Positions 5,682 to 58,825 of a stretch of DNA of 64,000 bases are shown one piece after another. The first letter of the stretch is position 1. Each line of letters opens with the position of its first letter. Location: assembly GCA_038064915.1 (NCBI GenBank), contig JBBTSB010000005.1:10615-74614 (forward strand), in the 5' to 3' direction. A program made the position numbers and the translations under genes. Origin of the DNA: Patescibacteria group bacterium. Its GTDB lineage: Bacteria; Patescibacteriota; Minisyncoccia; 2-02-FULL-40-12; IGHO2-01-FULL-4-A. The notes under the pieces are model-generated. The model had not been told where the DNA came from, made no database searches, and saw nothing but the letters and a program-made list of their open reading frames with translations.

Positions 5682-6317
5682 ATGTCCAAAAAAGTCTATC
5701 TTGTCCGTCATGGGGAGACGGAAGATCTTGCAAAGAAGTTGCATCAGCAGAATGATTCTGTTCTTTCGGAGCGAGGAAATCAACAGGCGCAAGATGTTGC
5801 GGGGCGTTTTTCCAAAATACGCGCAGATATAGTTTATTCGAGTCCATTTCTCAGAACTCTTCAGACAGCGAAGCACATCGGTACCATAGCAGGTGCACCG
5901 GTTGAAACAAAAGAGCTTCTTCGTGAACGGAAACAACCAAAAGAGATTATGGGAAAACCGCGGGATGATGCGGAAGTGATGCGCATCAAAAACACTATCA
6001 ACGAACACAGACATGATCCCTCGTGGCATTATTCCGACGAAGAAAACTTTTTTGACCTTCGCGGTCGAGTGAAAGAATTTCAGAAATTTGTAGAAAACGA
6101 TACCCAAGAGAACGTGGTGTTAGTATCTCACGCGGTATTCATTAAAATGTTTACGCTGGTGAGTGTTTTTGGAGATTTACTCACACCGGATATGTTTTCA
6201 TCGTATTATCAACATGTGCGAACAAGCCAAACTGGTATTACTATGCTTGAGTTCACTGATAATGAATGGAAGCTTCTTACCTGGAATGATTATGCGCATT
6301 TAGGAGAAAATACATGA
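5682..6317 (+). CDS. Histidine phosphatase family protein (phosphoglycerate-mutase-like)
   Basis: VYLVRHGET catalytic RHG motif plus IVYSSPFLRTLQTA; start ATG 5682. Confidence 0.8.
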   Translation: MSKKVYLVRHGETEDLAKKLHQQNDSVLSERGNQQAQDVAGRFSKIRADIVYSSPFLRTLQTAKHIGTIAGAPVETKELLRERKQPKEIMGKPRDDAEVMRIKNTINEHRHDPSWHYSDEENFFDLRGRVKEFQKFVENDTQENVVLVSHAVFIKMFTLVSVFGDLLTPDMFSSYYQHVRTSQTGITMLEFTDNEWKLLTWNDYAHLGENT

Positions 6318-6784
6318 ATATGCAACAAACCATTCGCTGGAAAGCGCCGGCAACCTATCGGCGTGAGGGAACAAAAGCACCGTACTATTTTGTTGCAATT
6401 CTTTTGCTCGTGGCTTTGCTCATCGGTATTGTTCAGGGAGACCTGGTGGGCGCTATTCTGTTTGTCCTCATGGCCGTCATGACCCTGATCCACATTCGAA
6501 AACCGGTGGATATCGTTGACATTGAGGTAAGTCCCCTATCCGTGGTGGTGGGAGGAAAAACCTACCGTACGGAGGACATTACATCGTTTTGGATTGACTA
6601 TGTGCCGGAGAGTGATTTGAAAGAGTTGAGCCTGCACATGAAAAAGTGGACATCGCCGTATGTGAAAATTCAGCTTGGTGATCAAGACCCTGTTCAAGTT
6701 CGCGCGATTTTGATAGAGTTACTACCCGAGGTGAGACATGAAGGTACGCTGATACACGCCTTCGTCCGCCGGCTGGGATTGTGA
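6314..6784 (+). CDS. Hypothetical membrane protein (two TM helices then a PH-like soluble domain)
   Basis: ORF overlaps the previous stop by ATGA; hydrophobic stretch AILLLVALLIGIV...LFVLMAVMTLI. Confidence 0.5.
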   Translation: MNMQQTIRWKAPATYRREGTKAPYYFVAILLLVALLIGIVQGDLVGAILFVLMAVMTLIHIRKPVDIVDIEVSPLSVVVGGKTYRTEDITSFWIDYVPESDLKELSLHMKKWTSPYVKIQLGDQDPVQVRAILIELLPEVRHEGTLIHAFVRRLGL

Positions 6785-6795
6785 CTGGAAATAAT

Positions 6796-6867
6796 GCACC
6801 CGTCGTTCAACGGATAGGACGCAGGATTGCGGATCCTGCAATAGAGGTTCGATTCCTCTCGGGTGCA
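6796..6867 (+). tRNA. tRNA-Arg, apparent anticodon GCG
   Basis: GCACCCG/CGGGTGC acceptor, D-arm GTTC-AACGGATA-GGAC, anticodon arm CAGGA-TTGCGGA-TCCTG, T-arm AGAGG-TTCGATT-CCTCT, A73. Confidence 0.75.
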
Positions 6868-6892
6868 CACTTTCTTCGCTAAAGCTACGAAG

Positions 6893-6946
6893 TGCAAGCA
6901 AAAAAAGAAAAGGCACGTGATCGGGCGAAGTGTTCTGCCCGCGTGC
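6893..6946 (-). terminator. Rho-independent terminator for the small GC-rich ORF
   Basis: GGCACG..CGGGC...GCCCG..CGTGCC imperfect hairpin followed on the minus strand by a U-run (plus-strand AAAAAAAGAAAA at 6895-6910). Confidence 0.5.
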
Positions 6947-6982
6947 CTCTTGCCAGGTGCTCGGCCGAATTATTTCGCGGCC

Positions 6983-7180
6983 TCAGCTGAACAGCGGCAT
7001 CTGGACGGCGGCTTGAAGGCGCCTGCCCCGATGCTGCTTCACTGCGGCCTTTGCGAGGAGAGCCGCTTCCGCGACCCGTCGCTTGGCCTCCTCCTCGACC
7101 TTGCCCGGTGCGACCGCGCACTCACACGGTCCATCGAGCAGAACGAGGAGCTCCTTGGTCCACGCCGTACGGTTGGCCAT
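6983..7180 (-). CDS. Small GC-rich hypothetical protein (65 aa)
   Basis: ATG preceded by AAGGAGGT (5-nt spacer); ~65% GC (estimated by eye) against AT-rich flanks; sequence MANRTAWTKELLVLLDGPCECAVAPGKVEEEAKRRVAEAALLAKAAVKQHRGRRLQAAVQMPLFS. Confidence 0.55.
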   Translation of the reverse strand: MANRTAWTKELLVLLDGPCECAVAPGKVEEEAKRRVAEAALLAKAAVKQHRGRRLQAAVQMPLFS

Positions 7181-7198
7181 GTGACCTCCTTATTTTGT

Positions 7199-7227
7199 AT
7201 TTTACTATATTTTTATGTTAAAGTCAA
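7199..7227 (-). promoter_or_regulatory. Near-consensus sigma70 promoter TTGACT-N17-TAAAAT for the 65-aa ORF
   Basis: Minus-strand read: TTGACT ttaacataaaaatatag TAAAAT acaaaatAAGGAGGtcacATG. Confidence 0.55.
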
Positions 7228-7231
7228 ATAT

Positions 7232-9238
7232 ATGATTTCTCTCGAAACTTCCATAGAAAACCTGGCCCATGTCGGGCCTCGGACACTTCCGAGGCTGAAG
7301 CGTCTTGGTATCACCAAGGTAAAACATTTACTTTGGCACTTTCCCAGTCGGTATGAGGATTTTGCTGAGATCATTCCCATCGATCAAGCAACGCAAGTAG
7401 ACACGGTAGTGAGTATCCAGGGAGAAGTCCAAAAAATCGAAACTACTCGCGCGTGGCGGAAACACCTTAACATCACTACGGCCTATGTGGCCGATGATAC
7501 CGAGAGCATCCGGGTAGTGTGGTTCAATCAGCCATTCATCGAGCGCTCTCTTCCCGAAGGGACGCGAGTGAGCTGTTCGGGCAAGCTCAAGCTCGATAAA
7601 CGTGGCATCTATCTTTCCAGCCCTAGCTACGAAAAAATCACTCGCGATGAACTAACGCACACCGGGCGCTTGGTACCCGTGTATCCGGAGACGGATGGCA
7701 TTTCATCAAAGTATTTGCGTTTTCTCATCAAGCCCATTCTCGACCAACTCAAGGATGTCCCTGATCCCCTGCCAGTGAGTATCGTACAGAAATTCCAATT
7801 TCCCGATCTCCTCTATTCACTACGCACTATACACTTTCCCGAAACTGAACCTGATACAGTCGCGCCGCGGCAGAGGTTTGCATTTGAGGAATTGTTTTTT
7901 CTCCAGCTCCGTGCACTCATGGATCGCCAGAGAATGAAACTTTTGCCCGCGCCGCGCATTGCTTTTGAAAAAGAAAACATAGCCGCGCTGGTAAAATCTC
8001 TTCCTTTTACACTTACGAACGACCAGCGTCTTGCTGCCTTTGAAATTCTCAAAGACATAGAGCGTTCCTATCCTATGAATCGGCTTTTGAATGGCGACGT
8101 GGGTTCCGGAAAGACGGTTGTGGCACTAATTGCCGCCTATCAAACGGCACGTGCCGGGTATCAAACGGTGTTTATGGCACCGACGGAACTTCTTGCGACG
8201 CAGCACTATGGAACCATTTCAGAGCTCGTCCCCCCGGGTATCTCCCTGGGAATCTTGACGGGTAGCAAGAAAATAAATAAAGATGCTCAGATCATCGTTG
8301 GTACTCATGCCGTGATACAAAAAGGTGTTACGTTTAACAACCTAGGACTTGTGGTGATTGATGAGCAACACAGATTCGGTGTGAAACAGCGCATGAAATT
8401 AATAAAAGACCAAAAGCTCGTTCCGCATCTCCTCTCGATGACGGCGACCCCAATCCCCCGTACGCTGGCGCTGACGATATACGGCGACCTTGATGTGTCG
8501 CTCATCAAAGAAAAACCAAAAGGTCGGCAGGAAATTACCACGAAGGTCGTGTCTCATGAGAAACGAGCGGAAGCATATCAATTTATCGAAAAACAAATCC
8601 AAGAAGGAAGGCAAATTTTTGTGATTTGTCCGCGTATTGAAGCCAGCGAGGCAAAGACAGATATGAAGATGGTGACCGAAGAATTCAAAAAGCTCTCTGC
8701 GCTATTTCCTCATCGAAAAGTTGCCATGATGCACGGGAAGATGAGGGAGAAAGGCGAGATCATGCAAAAATTCAAAGATCATGAGATCGATGTTCTCGTT
8801 TCAACTTCGGTCATTGAAGTTGGTGTCGACGTTCCTAATGCCACGATTATGATGATCGAGTCGGCAGAGCGTTTTGGTCTTGCACAATTGCATCAATTCC
8901 GAGGACGTGTTGGACGCGGTGCACACCAGTCATATTGTCTTTTGTTTACGAGTAGTCCCGATATTACATCAACGCGCCGTCTCAAAGCAATGGAAGCAAC
9001 GAATGATGGCTTTAAACTTGCCGAGATGGATCTCAAAATCCGCGGCCCCGGGCAATTCACCGGCACCATACAGTCCGGTATACCCGATCTTGCCATGGCA
9101 TCGCTCTCTGATATCAACCTCATCAAAACCGCCCGGGATAGTGCCCAAGAACTTTTGAAAGAAGACGCTACGCTTTCACGCTATCCTTTACTTCATGCTC
9201 GTCTGGAAGAGCTTCAGAAGATGGTTCACTTTGAATAG
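7232..9238 (+). CDS. recG: ATP-dependent DNA helicase RecG
   Basis: Wedge domain, helicase motifs NGDVGSGKT, DEQHRFG, TATPIPRT and QLHQFRGRVGRG; real start ATG 7232 (the GC-rich 5' extension of ORF 6863.. is not RecG). Confidence 0.9.
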   Translation: MISLETSIENLAHVGPRTLPRLKRLGITKVKHLLWHFPSRYEDFAEIIPIDQATQVDTVVSIQGEVQKIETTRAWRKHLNITTAYVADDTESIRVVWFNQPFIERSLPEGTRVSCSGKLKLDKRGIYLSSPSYEKITRDELTHTGRLVPVYPETDGISSKYLRFLIKPILDQLKDVPDPLPVSIVQKFQFPDLLYSLRTIHFPETEPDTVAPRQRFAFEELFFLQLRALMDRQRMKLLPAPRIAFEKENIAALVKSLPFTLTNDQRLAAFEILKDIERSYPMNRLLNGDVGSGKTVVALIAAYQTARAGYQTVFMAPTELLATQHYGTISELVPPGISLGILTGSKKINKDAQIIVGTHAVIQKGVTFNNLGLVVIDEQHRFGVKQRMKLIKDQKLVPHLLSMTATPIPRTLALTIYGDLDVSLIKEKPKGRQEITTKVVSHEKRAEAYQFIEKQIQEGRQIFVICPRIEASEAKTDMKMVTEEFKKLSALFPHRKVAMMHGKMREKGEIMQKFKDHEIDVLVSTSVIEVGVDVPNATIMMIESAERFGLAQLHQFRGRVGRGAHQSYCLLFTSSPDITSTRRLKAMEATNDGFKLAEMDLKIRGPGQFTGTIQSGIPDLAMASLSDINLIKTARDSAQELLKEDATLSRYPLLHARLEELQKMVHFE

Positions 9239-18389: not shown

Positions 18390-19445
18390 TTATTTTCCTA
18401 ACACGACTCCGAGGACGCGGTCAATGATCGCAAACATATGATCACGCGTATTTGTCATCAAAAGGTATTGATCGCCGTCGGGCATGGTAACAATGGCATA
18501 GTCTAAGCTATTGAATGCATCAGGAAAGTTTCTGTATCGTATCACGGTATTTTGATAGGTATTGCTGAGAAAACCTTCGGATGCAGAACGTTGTGTGTTG
18601 AGCTGAAAGAATGTTTTCAGATCCCGAGCCATCGTGGATTCCCAGTCGGTCAAAGCTGTCTGCGCAGCTACAGTATCATTGATCTTGAATGCATATCCCA
18701 AACCACTTGATCCGTCTGGTTTTCCAAATGATGACCGATACACATATTCCGGATCAAATGAGAAGTCAAGAGCAGGAAATGGAAAATCAGCGAGAACAGC
18801 ATGAGACATCTTCAGTTCACCCACGGACAAGTTTCCCTCAAGGGATTGCGTCGGGTGAAATATCTCCTCGAATCCAAACATAGGGGTTGGTGTCGGAGTC
18901 GCGGAAGACGTAGGAGTTGGGGTCGGTTCGGGGTTGGACTTGCTTCCCAGGAGAAAGAGAACCACTAGCATAATAACTACAAATATGCCCACAATAATCC
19001 AAATCATTGGCTTTTTTCGGCGTTTTCCGTCAGGGGGCAAATTTACCGGAGCTGGCGGACGCGGGGGAGTTTGCCCGAATGATCGCTGTTCAGGGGGACG
19101 TGGCGTCGAAACAGCTGGTGGAACCGTAATACCAGAAGGTTTTGTTTTTGCTACGTCCTGCTCCATGGTTCTGACAGAAGAGCGAAACGTTGGTGGGGCC
19201 TGGCCAACGATCTGGGGACCTGAGGGGCGGGCGGGTGCTGGGGCAGGTTGCGGAACTCCCGATGGAGGCAAGTGGGGAGCAGGGGAAGGTGTAACATTTG
19301 AGAGATTGGTTTCCTTTACCGGGATCGTCGGAGGTGGCGAAATAGGCCGGGGCGGAAGTGTCGGCGGAGGCGTCGGAGGAACGGCCGGTTGTGGTGGTCG
19401 TGGAGGAAGAGTTGGCTTTGGTGGGAGAGGATTTACATCTGCCAT
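18390..19445 (-). CDS. Proline-rich membrane-anchored hypothetical protein
   Basis: PPxP-rich N-terminal 150 aa, one TM helix (WIIVGIFVVIMLVVLFLLG), Thr/Pro linker, C-terminal globular domain. Confidence 0.55.
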   Translation of the reverse strand: MADVNPLPPKPTLPPRPPQPAVPPTPPPTLPPRPISPPPTIPVKETNLSNVTPSPAPHLPPSGVPQPAPAPARPSGPQIVGQAPPTFRSSVRTMEQDVAKTKPSGITVPPAVSTPRPPEQRSFGQTPPRPPAPVNLPPDGKRRKKPMIWIIVGIFVVIMLVVLFLLGSKSNPEPTPTPTSSATPTPTPMFGFEEIFHPTQSLEGNLSVGELKMSHAVLADFPFPALDFSFDPEYVYRSSFGKPDGSSGLGYAFKINDTVAAQTALTDWESTMARDLKTFFQLNTQRSASEGFLSNTYQNTVIRYRNFPDAFNSLDYAIVTMPDGDQYLLMTNTRDHMFAIIDRVLGVVLGK

Positions 19446-33589: not shown

Positions 33590-34048
33590 CCAGGGGGTAT
33601 TGAAACCCCGTCTGGAAATATGTTTAACCGAGTACTACACGCGTAGCCCATCTTCTGTACAGATGATACTCAAAGTCGGGCGAAACGTATCATCCGTGTA
33701 CTGATTGATACAATGCATATCCAGCAGGACAACTAGAGATACAAGGCTACTCGCTTTTGACGCCCACTCCTCCTAGCGAGTATCAGGGGGTGAACGACAG
33801 CTTAACCGAAGTTAGGCTGTAGCGTATCCATAGCCGGAGCTATAGGCAGCTGAATAGGTGTTTTTAGCACTTATAGGTTTGCGAATAGTTTCACGAGGTG
33901 TTCGCAAGCTCGGCGTGCACTTGGTGTAAAGGTACTTCCATCAAAACTCGCAGGCCCATATGAAAATACTAACGCATTTCGTAAAAAAGTGTTACAACCC
34001 GCAGGGCCGACGCGTCGCCTTTCGGCAACGATCGACCCCACGGGGGAG
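33590..34048 (-). other. ~460-nt hairpin-rich non-coding segment (candidate structured RNA or long 3' UTR) between the GC-rich ORF and the terminator
   Basis: No ORF over 30 codons with an SD; several inverted repeats (GTATCA..TGATAC, TTGCGAA..TTCGCAA, GCC-TTTC-GGC); I could not match tmRNA or RNase P hallmarks by eye. Confidence 0.35.
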
Positions 34049-34642
34049 CTACTGGATGCGGTGCGGCGCGGGAACGCTCCCTAGCAGGAGCCGGCGGAGG
34101 TCGAAGAACTCGCAGATGAAGTTCTTCGCGAGCTCATCGAACCGTCGCGCCTTGTCCTCGGGGACGCTGGCGATCTGACCGATCGTCAGGACCTCGAGCC
34201 CGTTGACTCCGAGGCCGCAGAGGGCGATGAGGGCCTTGACGAGCTCGATGTGCGTGTCGGTGAAGGAAGTCTCCGAGGACCTCTTGGGAGGCTCGAAGAG
34301 CTCCATCATCCTCGCCTCGCCGACCTTGCTGAGGACCGGGACGCGGTAGTGGGTGCCGCCGGCCTTGCCCCAGGCGATCCGGAGAAGCCCGCGCTCGCGG
34401 AGCATGTTCCAGTTCGCCGTGAGGTGCGCCTTCCCGCCGACGTCGGCGACGGCGCGACGGAGCCGATGGAGGCCGATCCCGATCGCACCCCTCCGGTTCA
34501 CCCACAGCTTGTTGTCGTCGATGAACCGGTTGACGTTCACGACGAGCTTCGCGAAGTCCTCGAGTTTCGTGGTGACCCGGGGGAGCTCGCTTACCAGTGC
34601 GAGATCCAGCCCAGGCATCATGCCGTCGCTTCGCATACTCAT
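34049..34642 (-). CDS. GC-rich hypothetical protein (197 aa), probably horizontally acquired
   Basis: ~65% GC (estimated by eye) with very high GC3; AAGGAGGA SD 8 nt before the ATG; no catalytic motif recognised. Confidence 0.6.
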   Translation of the reverse strand: MSMRSDGMMPGLDLALVSELPRVTTKLEDFAKLVVNVNRFIDDNKLWVNRRGAIGIGLHRLRRAVADVGGKAHLTANWNMLRERGLLRIAWGKAGGTHYRVPVLSKVGEARMMELFEPPKRSSETSFTDTHIELVKALIALCGLGVNGLEVLTIGQIASVPEDKARRFDELAKNFICEFFDLRRLLLGSVPAPHRIQ

Positions 34643-34708
34643 ACCTTCATTCCTCCTTGTTGGTCTGTGTACGAAAAGCCGCGGGGGATCCGCGACTATC
34701 GTGAATGA

Positions 34709-34737
34709 ATCATAGCACTATAGTATAAAATAGTCAA
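34709..34737 (-). promoter_or_regulatory. Near-consensus sigma70 promoter TTGACT-N17-TATGAT for the 197-aa ORF
   Basis: Minus strand: cTTGACTattttatactatagtgcTATGATtc, ~65 nt upstream of the ATG. Confidence 0.55.
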
Positions 34738-56969: not shown

Positions 56970-56997
56970 CTTGACCAAATATAGAATAGGTATATAA
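56970..56997 (+). promoter_or_regulatory. Near-consensus sigma70 promoter TTGACC-N16-TATAAT for the GC-rich two-gene cassette
   Basis: cTTGACCaaatatagaataggtaTATAATtacg. Confidence 0.5.
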
Positions 56998-57028
56998 TTA
57001 CGTTAAGCCTGTGGAAAGGGGGAAGAAA

Positions 57029-57367
57029 GTGAAATGTGGGGTGAGGGGTCCTGATCGTGACACGATTCTTCAGATGCCGACGAAGGTCTACGAAAGATGG
57101 CTCTTGGATGAGGAAGCGCTCGAGTACTATGTCCGCGGAGGACCGGATGAAGACCGGCACATCTGGCTCCTCGACGGTGAGCGGAACGTCCTGATCGAGC
57201 TAAAGCAGGGATACAGGAGTACCGATCACTGGAGCGACAGGGTGGGAGAAACTATCGGCAAGGTGATAGAGAAGTTGAAAGCAGAGGGTAAGCGTCCACG
57301 CTTCGCCCTGATCATCAACGATCCGCCCGGCATGGACGGATGCCAAGGTCTCTACGTCATCGCATAA
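57029..57367 (+). CDS. GC-rich hypothetical protein (~112 aa; alternative GTG start at 57011)
   Basis: SD AAGGGGGAAG 6 nt before GTG 57029; elevated GC (~55-58%, estimated by eye); sequence ...LDGERNVLIELKQGYRSTDHWSDRVGETIGKVIEKLKAEGKRPRFALIINDPPGMDGCQGLYVIA. Confidence 0.5.
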   Translation: MKCGVRGPDRDTILQMPTKVYERWLLDEEALEYYVRGGPDEDRHIWLLDGERNVLIELKQGYRSTDHWSDRVGETIGKVIEKLKAEGKRPRFALIINDPPGMDGCQGLYVIA

Positions 57368-57376
57368 GGAGTAGCC

Positions 57377-57541
57377 ATGAAGCATCGACCGTGCAGTTGT
57401 ACCAAAAAGATCCAGGAACTCGAGAGCAAGCTGCAAAAGATCGGGGAGCGTGTGCTCGGACTCGAAGCGCTTGCGATGCAAAAGGCCCTCCGAGATTTAC
57501 GAGCTGAGGCTCGGCTTCTCAAGGAGGAGCTTGAACGGTGA
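57377..57541 (+). CDS. Small coiled-coil protein (54 aa), second gene of the GC-rich cassette
   Basis: AAGGAG SD 6 nt before ATG 57377; MKHRPCSCTKKIQELESKLQKIGERVLGLEALAMQKALRDLRAEARLLKEELER; not in the supplied ORF track (under 60 aa). Confidence 0.5.
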   Translation: MKHRPCSCTKKIQELESKLQKIGERVLGLEALAMQKALRDLRAEARLLKEELER

Positions 57542-57581
57542 TAGTTCTCTGCCAAGTCCAGGGATAGGCTCCGGGTTGCGC

Positions 57582-57623
57582 GGTATCCTGTGCGCGTAAA
57601 AAGCGGATACCATCTTTTTTTTT
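57582..57623 (+). terminator. Rho-independent terminator GGTATCC-N16-GGATACC followed by T9
   Basis: 7-bp stem plus a poly-T run; a second hairpin AAATCCCC-GAAA-GGGGATTT follows at 57644-57663. Confidence 0.6.
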
Positions 57624-58253: not shown

Positions 58254-58424
58254 CTAGATACTATATACTACAAAAGAAAAAGAAAAAACTTACGATAAAC
58301 TGAGATTGTTAAAAGAGTTTCAATAGTGACAAAATAAACAACACGCCAGCAACGATCAGATAAATTCCATTTCGTGACCGGAAGTAAAGAAATATTCCAC
58401 AGAGCATGAGAATAAAATAAATCA

Positions 58425-58750
58425 TTTGCTCCCGGGCAGGGACTCAGTCGCGCCTCTCGCGATGCCGTCGCATCGCTCGGGCTGACCACCACCTCGCGGA
58501 TTCATCTGCTGATTCATCATCGCTCCGGCGTTCTCGCCCTGACGTGAGTGCGATTGCGCACTCACTCCCGTCATCAAACGTGAAGCGTTTGCTCCCGGGC
58601 AGGGACTCAGTCGCGCCTCTCGCGATGCCGTCGCATCGCTCGGGCTGACCACCACCTCGCGGATTCATCTGCTGATTCATCATCGCTCCGGCGTTCTCGC
58701 CCTGACGTGAGTGCGATTGCGCACTCACTCCCGTCATCAAACGTGAAGCG
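58425..58750. repeat. Two perfect 163-bp tandem repeats, each a 142-bp GC-rich unit plus the last 21 nt of tRNA-Gln
   Basis: Units 58425-58587 and 58588-58750 appear identical; each starts with TTTGCTCCCGGGCAGGGACTC (reverse complement of the tRNA-Gln 3' end) and carries the hairpins GCGATGC-CGTC-GCATCGC and GTGAGTGCG-ATT-GCGCACTCAC. Confidence 0.85.
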
Positions 58751-58754
58751 TTTG

Positions 58755-58825
58755 CTCCCGGGCAGGGACTCGAACCCCAATTACATGATTCAGAGTCATG
58801 TGTCCTACCATTAGACGACCCGGGA
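58755..58825 (-). tRNA. tRNA-Gln(CUG)
   Basis: U1:A72 and G73; D-arm GTCT-AATGGTA-GGAC; anticodon arm CATGA-CTCTGAA-TCATG; T-arm TGGGG-TTCGAGT-CCCTG. Confidence 0.8.

Follow-up and report, generated by a model that had tools for sequence, protein, structure and literature searches.

A GC-rich block between tRNA-Arg and recG in a groundwater Patescibacteria species: a candidate acquired, moron-like single-gene unit

INTRODUCTION

Species-specific orphan genes occur in chromosomal gene-transfer hot spots that are flanked by core genes. The origins of orphan genes have been discussed previously (bioRxiv 10.1101/2023.07.17.549306). Phage morons, first found in HK97 and HK022, are independent transcription units that a genome has acquired; they stand out as extra DNA relative to related genomes, with a deviant GC content and with a promoter and terminator of their own (PMC3594210). 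Genomic islands have tRNA and tmRNA genes as their usual targets, and the Islander criteria define such tRNA- and tmRNA-gene islands (PMC4383910).

Here, we describe a 363-nt block of DNA located between a tRNA-Arg gene and recG in a Patescibacteria species from groundwater of Hainich well H51, a site that has been described together with its Patescibacteria (PMC8672522). Strand-specific metatranscriptomes from this well have also been reported (PMC12960796). We analyzed the block in its context of 64 kb (from here on, the window is this whole stretch of DNA) and in related loci. The interpretation we favor, and consider somewhat probable, is that the block is an acquired, self-contained, moron-like single-gene unit in a hypervariable slot. 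As such, it represents one more gene that a single lineage has acquired at a variable locus, which is nothing out of the ordinary, and not a new kind of system.

RESULTS

The block is GC-rich and fills a hypervariable slot

The housekeeping neighbors of the block are topA, a histidine phosphatase gene, tRNA genes, recG, and a holA-like gene. The features of the locus are as follows.

6796-6868, plus strand: tRNA-Arg (anticodon GCG) by ARAGORN, with an Rfam score of 60.8 bits over 6796-6867; conserved left border of the slot
6869..7231, no strand: inserted block of 363 nt, the gap from tRNA-Arg to recG
6900..6947, minus strand: predicted intrinsic terminator of ORF65, a GC-rich hairpin plus U-run
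6983..7180, minus strand: ORF65, 65 aa plus stop (TGA at 6985-6983), an orphan
7184..7191, minus strand: Shine-Dalgarno (SD) sequence AAGGAGGT, followed by CAC and then ATG, thus 3 nt ahead of the ATG
7199..7227, minus strand: predicted sigma-70-type promoter of ORF65, TTGACT-N17-TAAAAT
7227-7222 and 7204-7199, minus strand: -35 box TTGACT and -10 box TAAAAT of this promoter, 10/12 consensus positions matched
7216..7224, plus strand: candidate extended -10 element of recG, TGtTAAAGT, inferred from sequence and overlapping the ORF65 -35 box
7232..9238, plus strand: recG, 668 aa (Pfam RecG_wedge, DEAD, and Helicase_C; RecG in the source annotation); conserved right border of the slot

The whole gap (6869-7231) has a GC content of 56%, which is distributed unevenly along its length. 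The left end (6869-6913) is AT-richer at 38% GC, the 270-nt core (6914-7183) reaches 65.9% GC compared to 48-49% in the flanking genes and a window mean of 47.2%, and the right end (7184-7231) is extremely AT-rich at 19% GC. Only 0.4% of the 270-nt windows across the 64 kb are as GC-rich as the core. The original prediction of a GC-rich block directly 3' of tRNA-Arg was borne out, with the core at 66% GC and all of the claimed features present. It had also placed the -35 box 5 nt from recG; the box does adjoin the recG ATG (7232), but the spacing is actually 4 nt (7228-7231).

Comparison with relatives revealed that the order of tRNA-Arg(GCG) followed by recG is conserved across about 18 related loci, with a gap of 1 to 1643 nt between the two genes. 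Among the relatives, L003 is the closest one found (RecG 70% identical), and its recG starts 3 nt past tRNA-Arg; in a relative from the same well (L048), recG starts 1 nt past. The block is absent from both, and both flanks are colinear with relatives. On this comparison, which agrees with the earlier proposal of an integration at the tRNA-Arg/recG junction, the block is a true insertion. In ∼16 further relatives, the gap is filled with 67-1643 nt of unrelated content. Depending on the relative, the gap holds nothing, a terminator and a recG promoter (L018, L024, and L031), or unrelated ORFs of 69-303 aa. Because its content differs among relatives, the tRNA-Arg/recG gap is a hypervariable hot spot. 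The presence/absence check proposed for this block therefore had a clear outcome: one species has it, and no relative carries it. The relatives of its RecG put the host near Yanofskybacteria-type Patescibacteria.

A separate observation concerns recG expression in the two relatives with empty slots. The abutment of recG on the tRNA-Arg 3' end (L003, 3997-4001; L048, 1335-1337) implies a tRNA-mRNA cotranscript, in which case maturation of the tRNA 3' end would leave recG with a leaderless mRNA.

Promoter, Shine-Dalgarno sequence, and terminator around ORF65

The claimed TTGACT-N17-TAAAAT promoter, perfect SD, and hairpin plus U-run terminator are each present at the locus. Promoter matches of the 10/12 grade occur at 10 sites in the window on both strands, the ORF65 promoter being one of them, and this promoter sits in sequence of 12-19% GC, where promoter-like hexamers arise easily. 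Given the usual spacing after a -10 box, transcription would start near 7192 and leave a leader of ∼12 nt. The SD sequence has only two occurrences in the window, and the joint promoter-SD pattern was found once in the window and in 0/100 shuffles.

The terminator was overlooked by a simple scanner and was revealed by folding. Its stem, GGCACGCGGGC...GCCCG..CGUGCC (6947-6912), is followed by UUUUCUUUUUUU (6911-6900), and the minus-strand region 6869-6985 folds with −43.6 kcal/mol (z = −3.2). The terminator sets in ∼35 nt past the ORF65 stop codon. It is predicted to act in one direction because the plus-strand stem precedes TCTTGCC, and tRNA-Arg is not followed by a plus-strand terminator. As predicted from these sequences, the block would have both a consensus-like promoter of its own and a terminator made up of a hairpin and a U-run.

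ORF65 has coding periodicity and no detectable relatives

The 65-aa minus-strand ORF lies at 6983..7180, and the translation quoted in the original prediction is exact. By count of its charged residues, the protein is net basic, and its sequence contains the tryptic peptides ELLVLLDGPCECAVAPGK and VAEAALLAK. How much does an open frame of this size mean in such DNA? Four of the six frames in the block stay open beyond 55 codons, and base frequencies indicate that at 66% GC about one frame in 4 or 5 stays open for 65 codons. The length of ORF65 is therefore weak evidence, since frames that stay open for 65 codons are not rare in DNA of this composition.

The base pattern of ORF65 is more specific. 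GC by codon position is 0.75/0.48/0.79, with a permutation P value of 0.0002 for the 3-base periodicity, and GC3 is about 0.77-0.79 compared to 0.37-0.55 in native genes. We scored all six frames with a codon model trained on two other GC-rich, clearly coding ORFs, namely, ORF197 of the window (see below) and an ORF of relative L056. The ORF65 frame was the best of the six, with a score of +0.28 bits per codon; its codon-aligned antisense counterpart scored +0.01, and the other four ranged from −0.59 to −0.93; cross-validated ORF197 gave the same ranking of frames. ORF65 exactly fills the interval from the SD to the terminator.

Searches with the protein returned no relative. A word-indexed search of 5.8 billion clusters recovered only self-matches, and an exhaustive phmmer search of 1.84 billion representative proteins recovered no credible homologue. 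We dismissed two weak phmmer matches, P0014 (with cadherin-like repeats) and P0015 (with TPR-like repeats), on the grounds that their repeat families are unrelated, that both align with one and the same Ala/Glu/Lys-rich stretch, and that the multiplicity of the repeats accounts for the E values. There were zero matches in Pfam, NCBIfam, and PADLOC, zero among the sequences of solved structures in the PDB, nothing in IMG/VR, and nothing better than an E value of 0.09 in PHROGs; when the block was compared by blastn with records of phages and plasmids, just 31-nt AT-rich chance matches came up. The suggested search of toxin, antitoxin, and small-protein families thus yielded no family and no relative. 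A single-sequence AlphaFold2 model has low confidence (mean pLDDT of 66.6) and places helices at residues 9-15 and 27-59. The protein would be cytoplasmic and is probably helical. Our guess for its role is a small accessory factor that binds nucleic acid or protein, of the sort carried by mobile elements. The NCBI pipeline apparently skipped ORF65, since accessions MEK7615906, MEK7615907, and MEK7615908 run consecutively across the site.

As no homologue of ORF65 was found anywhere in these searches, there is no sign of selection from conservation, which counts against a gene. The original prediction had held that an ORF conserved nowhere would point to a chance ORF. Its premise, nonconservation, stands, but its conclusion is at odds with the periodicity, the frame score, and the placement of the signals. 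Altogether, the block has foreign composition, coding periodicity, and SD-led signals, and its protein is an orphan.

Initiation signals of the host and the case for an inert relic

We surveyed 48 nonoverlapping long ORFs of the window for a 5-mer SD before the candidate start. An SD was present in 4 of the 48, one of which is the inserted ORF197, and this frequency is not above the internal control. A TAnnnT hexamer 4-10 nt ahead of the start was found in 16 of the 48 ORFs compared to 5/48 in a control three times longer. From the rarity of SDs and the enrichment of TAnnnT, initiation in this host appears to be mostly SD-free and probably leaderless, which suggests that leaderless mRNAs are widespread in the genome. 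Since native genes are nearly SD-free, the 8-nt SD of ORF65 is foreign in style and would mark ORF65 as an import from an SD-using donor. With SD-led initiation barely used by the host, AAGGAGGT may be a relic of the donor and not a working signal.

The main rival to an acquired gene follows this line. The block could be an inert relic, a foreign coding fragment that some old integration or repair event left at the tRNA flank. The ORF would then stay open by virtue of GC content, the SD would be a leftover of the donor, the promoter-like hexamers would be a side effect of the AT-rich composition, and no functional protein would be made. We regard this as possible but unlikely. It fits an orphan ORF in a block with 4/6 frames open over 55 codons, a host that does not use SDs, and an ORF apparently uncalled by the NCBI pipeline, and geneless GC-rich scraps do lie by other tRNA genes (the 163-bp units at tRNA-Gln and the L037 insert, described below). 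It does not lead one to expect the retention of all four signals intact: the start lies exactly behind a perfect 8-nt SD and a 10/12 promoter that is correctly placed, a joint pattern unmatched in the 100 shuffles; the stop lies just ahead of a strong one-directional terminator; and the sense frame of ORF65 outscores its antisense partner.

The promoter of recG

In this genome, recG stands 363 nt from tRNA-Arg behind a convergent unit. The candidate extended -10 element TGtTAAAGT ends 7 nt ahead of the recG ATG, and it is possible that it would yield a leaderless recG mRNA, in keeping with the host pattern. Resembling motifs, TGTTAAAAT / TGGTAAAAT, lie upstream of recG in L018, L019, and L024, with TGTTAAAAT in L018 and L019. 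We also considered whether recG extends N-terminally into the block, where a plus frame is open from 6863, and rejected this because the RecG proteins of relatives start at the same MISL/MxxL position, an SD or start context is absent, and the codon model gives the frame a score close to zero.

Could the product of the insertion be a change in recG expression, with the ORF incidental? The block would then rewire recG by supplying a new leaderless promoter, and a transcript that is divergent or antisense would modulate read-through from tRNA-Arg. This idea draws on the abutment of recG on tRNA-Arg in L003 and L048, since an insertion that splits recG from tRNA-Arg leaves recG in need of a new promoter; TGtTAAAGT is suitably placed at 7 nt from the ATG, where it overlaps the -35 box of ORF65. 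It also draws on the lack of a plus-strand terminator after tRNA-Arg and on the fold of the block core, which has a z score of about −3 against shuffles on both strands (a z score of −5.3 for the whole block was discounted, as shuffling mixes its AT-rich and GC-rich parts). Equal z scores on the two strands indicate inverted repeats at the level of DNA and not a strand-specific RNA, however, and in an Rfam scan of the block only the tRNA passed, the next best hit having 21 bits against a threshold of 111 bits. Moreover, a promoter needs only ∼40 nt, which leaves unexplained a 270-nt GC-rich core with periodicity and an SD. We therefore consider rewiring as the main product of the block to be very unlikely.

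tRNA-targeted integration in the clade

The original prediction had viewed the tRNA 3' flank as an integration site. For the clade, this view was supported. In L037 and L038, the same tRNA-Arg/recG slot holds a GC-rich insert of ∼155 bp between the copies of a 55-bp direct repeat. The tRNA-Arg 3' end is part of this repeat, and its duplication indicates that the tRNA flank is a real integration target. For the ORF65 block itself, it was not: the proposed search for flanking repeats revealed no direct repeats or target duplication above chance, no displaced tRNA-Arg 3' fragment in 6300-7700, and no integrase in or near the block, which encodes ORF65 only. The 20 nt ahead of recG are AT-rich and unlike a tRNA end. 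Because an integrase and a duplicated tRNA end are absent, the block is not a canonical tRNA-gene island.

Four GC-rich islands were found in the window, and the three that are not explained by protein composition adjoin tRNA or tmRNA genes. The remaining patch at 19.2 kb (19147-19432) was rejected as an insertion; it encodes the proline-rich N-terminal segment of a membrane protein with 351 aa (18390..19445, minus strand), a composition effect. Behind tRNA-Gln (58420-58771, minus strand) lie two tandem GC-rich units of 163 bp, each with a copy of the tRNA 3' end, so that the window holds three copies of this end. The tRNA-Gln units share a core of ∼120 nt with L037 (1908-2133), L038 (661-783), and L003 (2524-2646), in which GAGAA-NN-CCGGAGCGATG is followed by a variable hairpin and then by CCGCGAGG... 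This core has no match in Rfam; it may represent either a small RNA that resembles tRNA or the att-proximal end of an element that targets tRNA genes. The ORF65 block has zero similarity to the L037 insert, the tRNA-Gln units, or the other GC-rich islands.

These results bear on whether the block is the remnant of a tRNA-gene island, in which a tyrosine-integrase element recombined within tRNA-Arg and rebuilt the 3' end of the gene, and the cassette is the last surviving cargo. Its position directly 3' of a tRNA, the repeat-flanked insert at the same tRNA-Arg in L037 and L038, the three tRNA-Gln 3'-end copies, and the three GC-rich islands next to tRNA or tmRNA genes, the usual island targets, all speak for such an origin. 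We nonetheless judge it highly improbable, given that a displaced tRNA-Arg fragment and a nearby integrase are missing, that 363 nt is far below island size, that the sequence before recG does not resemble a tRNA end, and that the block is unlike the L037 and tRNA-Gln elements.

An abrupt change in composition and a metagenome source would also be features of foreign reads chimerically joined in assembly or binning, but such an artifact is scarcely credible here, with flanks that are colinear with relatives and with block and junctions 100% identical in four independent assemblies (the 0.1-μm and 0.2-μm fractions of ENA Hain_H51 and two Logan runs). These assemblies come from separate libraries and different assemblers and show zero sequence variation, and their identity indicates that the block is real DNA. 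ORF65 and its neighbors are identical also in an NCBI Patescibacteria metagenome-assembled genome (AAB420 locus tags).

GC-rich units at 34.7 and 57 kb

From an identical promoter and SD grammar, the original prediction had suggested that units at 34.7 and 57.0 kb are related mobile units. The promoter at 34.7 kb is TTGACT-N17-TATGAT (34737-34709, minus strand), with TGCTATGAT as its -10 box. In relative L053 (SmpB 83% identical), the tmRNA gene lies 32 nt behind smpB, and TGCTATGAT lies 16 nt ahead of the tmRNA 5' end. Because it is conserved in L053, where the slot is empty, the 34.7-kb promoter is the native promoter of ssrA, the tmRNA gene. ORF197 (197 aa; 34049..34642, minus strand) has a GC3 of 0.90 and the SD AAGGAGGA, and it is inserted between this promoter and the tmRNA 5' end (33957), in a slot that spans 33958-34737. 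Given this arrangement, transcription of the tmRNA precursor should include ORF197 as a leader ORF. It is an orphan by search and has no phage match. In L055 and L056 (SmpB 81% identical), a different, nonhomologous GC-rich ORF with a GC3 of 0.86 occupies the same smpB-ssrA slot in the same orientation, and in other relatives, including L058 and L059, the slot is empty or holds AT-rich membrane ORFs. Compared across these loci, smpB-ssrA is seen as a second hypervariable slot adjoining a stable-RNA gene. We also observed tyrosine-recombinase (Phage_integrase) genes in three relatives, L053 (3851-4684), L058 (3415-4266), and L059 (4432 onwards), where they follow the tmRNA gene at a distance of 0.4-0.8 kb.

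The 57-kb unit (56971-57600, 55% GC) contains ORF118 and ORF54 (118 and 54 aa) and diverges from an AsnC-like regulator gene; its promoter is TTGACC-N16-TATAAT. In clusters at the 90% identity level, the two proteins group with the same species only, and family and viral scans were negative. No sequence is shared among ORF65, the 34.7-kb unit, and the 57-kb unit, which speaks against the latter two as relatives of the block. Of the suggested common grammar, what remains is a further GC-rich orphan ORF at 34.7 kb; the promoter there belongs to ssrA.

DISCUSSION

On the interpretation we favor, an acquired single-gene unit, the sigma-70-type promoter at the recG-proximal end of the block would fire away from recG, and the short transcript would start just ahead of the perfect SD. 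This transcript would yield the 65-aa basic and probably helical protein in the cytoplasm and would halt at the hairpin plus U-run before an antisense run into tRNA-Arg. We infer that the unit is both transcribed and translated. It may have arrived as the cargo or remnant of mobile DNA or by recombination via the conserved flanks; our searches recovered no donor, and an att repeat is likewise absent, as are an integrase and a target duplication. The AT-rich end of the block may now also serve as the promoter of recG, a gene that in the nearest relatives, L003 and L048, is presumably cotranscribed with the abutting tRNA-Arg.

The block gives a very reduced genome one more orphan gene that is specific to its lineage, and it shows where such genomes take in new DNA. 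The tRNA-Arg/recG and smpB/ssrA slots turn over between close relatives and can be used for tracking gene flow into Patescibacteria. Acquired ORFs with textbook SDs offer a simple, testable marker of recent foreign genes in uncultured bacteria, and the presence of such SD-led genes in a nearly SD-free host raises the question of whether they are translated at all. A broader proposal, which we think rather unlikely, is that the clade habitually captures unrelated, often GC-rich, SD-bearing orphans at stable-RNA slots, where they borrow strong native promoters or terminators. The clearest case for it is the smpB-ssrA slot, with ORF197 here and a nonhomologous orphan in L056. If true, the habit would amount to an integrase-less expression platform for foreign genes in leaderless, SD-free translators, and the DNA could come from hosts or neighbors through the DNA-uptake machinery of the clade.

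How does the block compare with the described systems? Like an island by the Islander criteria, it lies directly 3' of a tRNA gene and has foreign composition, and the same tRNA-Arg is the attachment point in L037 and L038. Unlike such an island, it lacks an integrase and a pair of regenerated and displaced tRNA ends, and it measures 363 nt compared to kilobases. We found no sign of membership in a toxin-antitoxin or anti-phage defense system, ORF65 being monocistronic, with no family match and no partner ORF.

The block resembles phage morons in form. The block is extra DNA between genes that are adjacent in related genomes (363 versus 1-3 nt), its GC content deviates from that of its neighbors (65.9% versus 48-49%), and it has a predicted promoter and terminator of its own around a single small gene of unknown origin. 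In contrast to a phage moron, it is part of a cellular chromosome, where it lies between tRNA-Arg and recG with no phage genes nearby, and it is found in one species only, with no sign of spread between genomes. Because the phage context is absent, the block falls outside the definition of a prophage moron; by analogy, it appears to work like a moron and is not filed as one.

With the orphans of chromosomal hot spots, the block shares a slot that is bounded by conserved genes and whose content differs in nearly every relative, and here, too, the occupant has no homologue and mobility genes are absent. It differs from them in being strikingly foreign in GC content and in carrying an SD in an SD-poor host, a combination that argues for an outside origin of the block rather than an origin in place.
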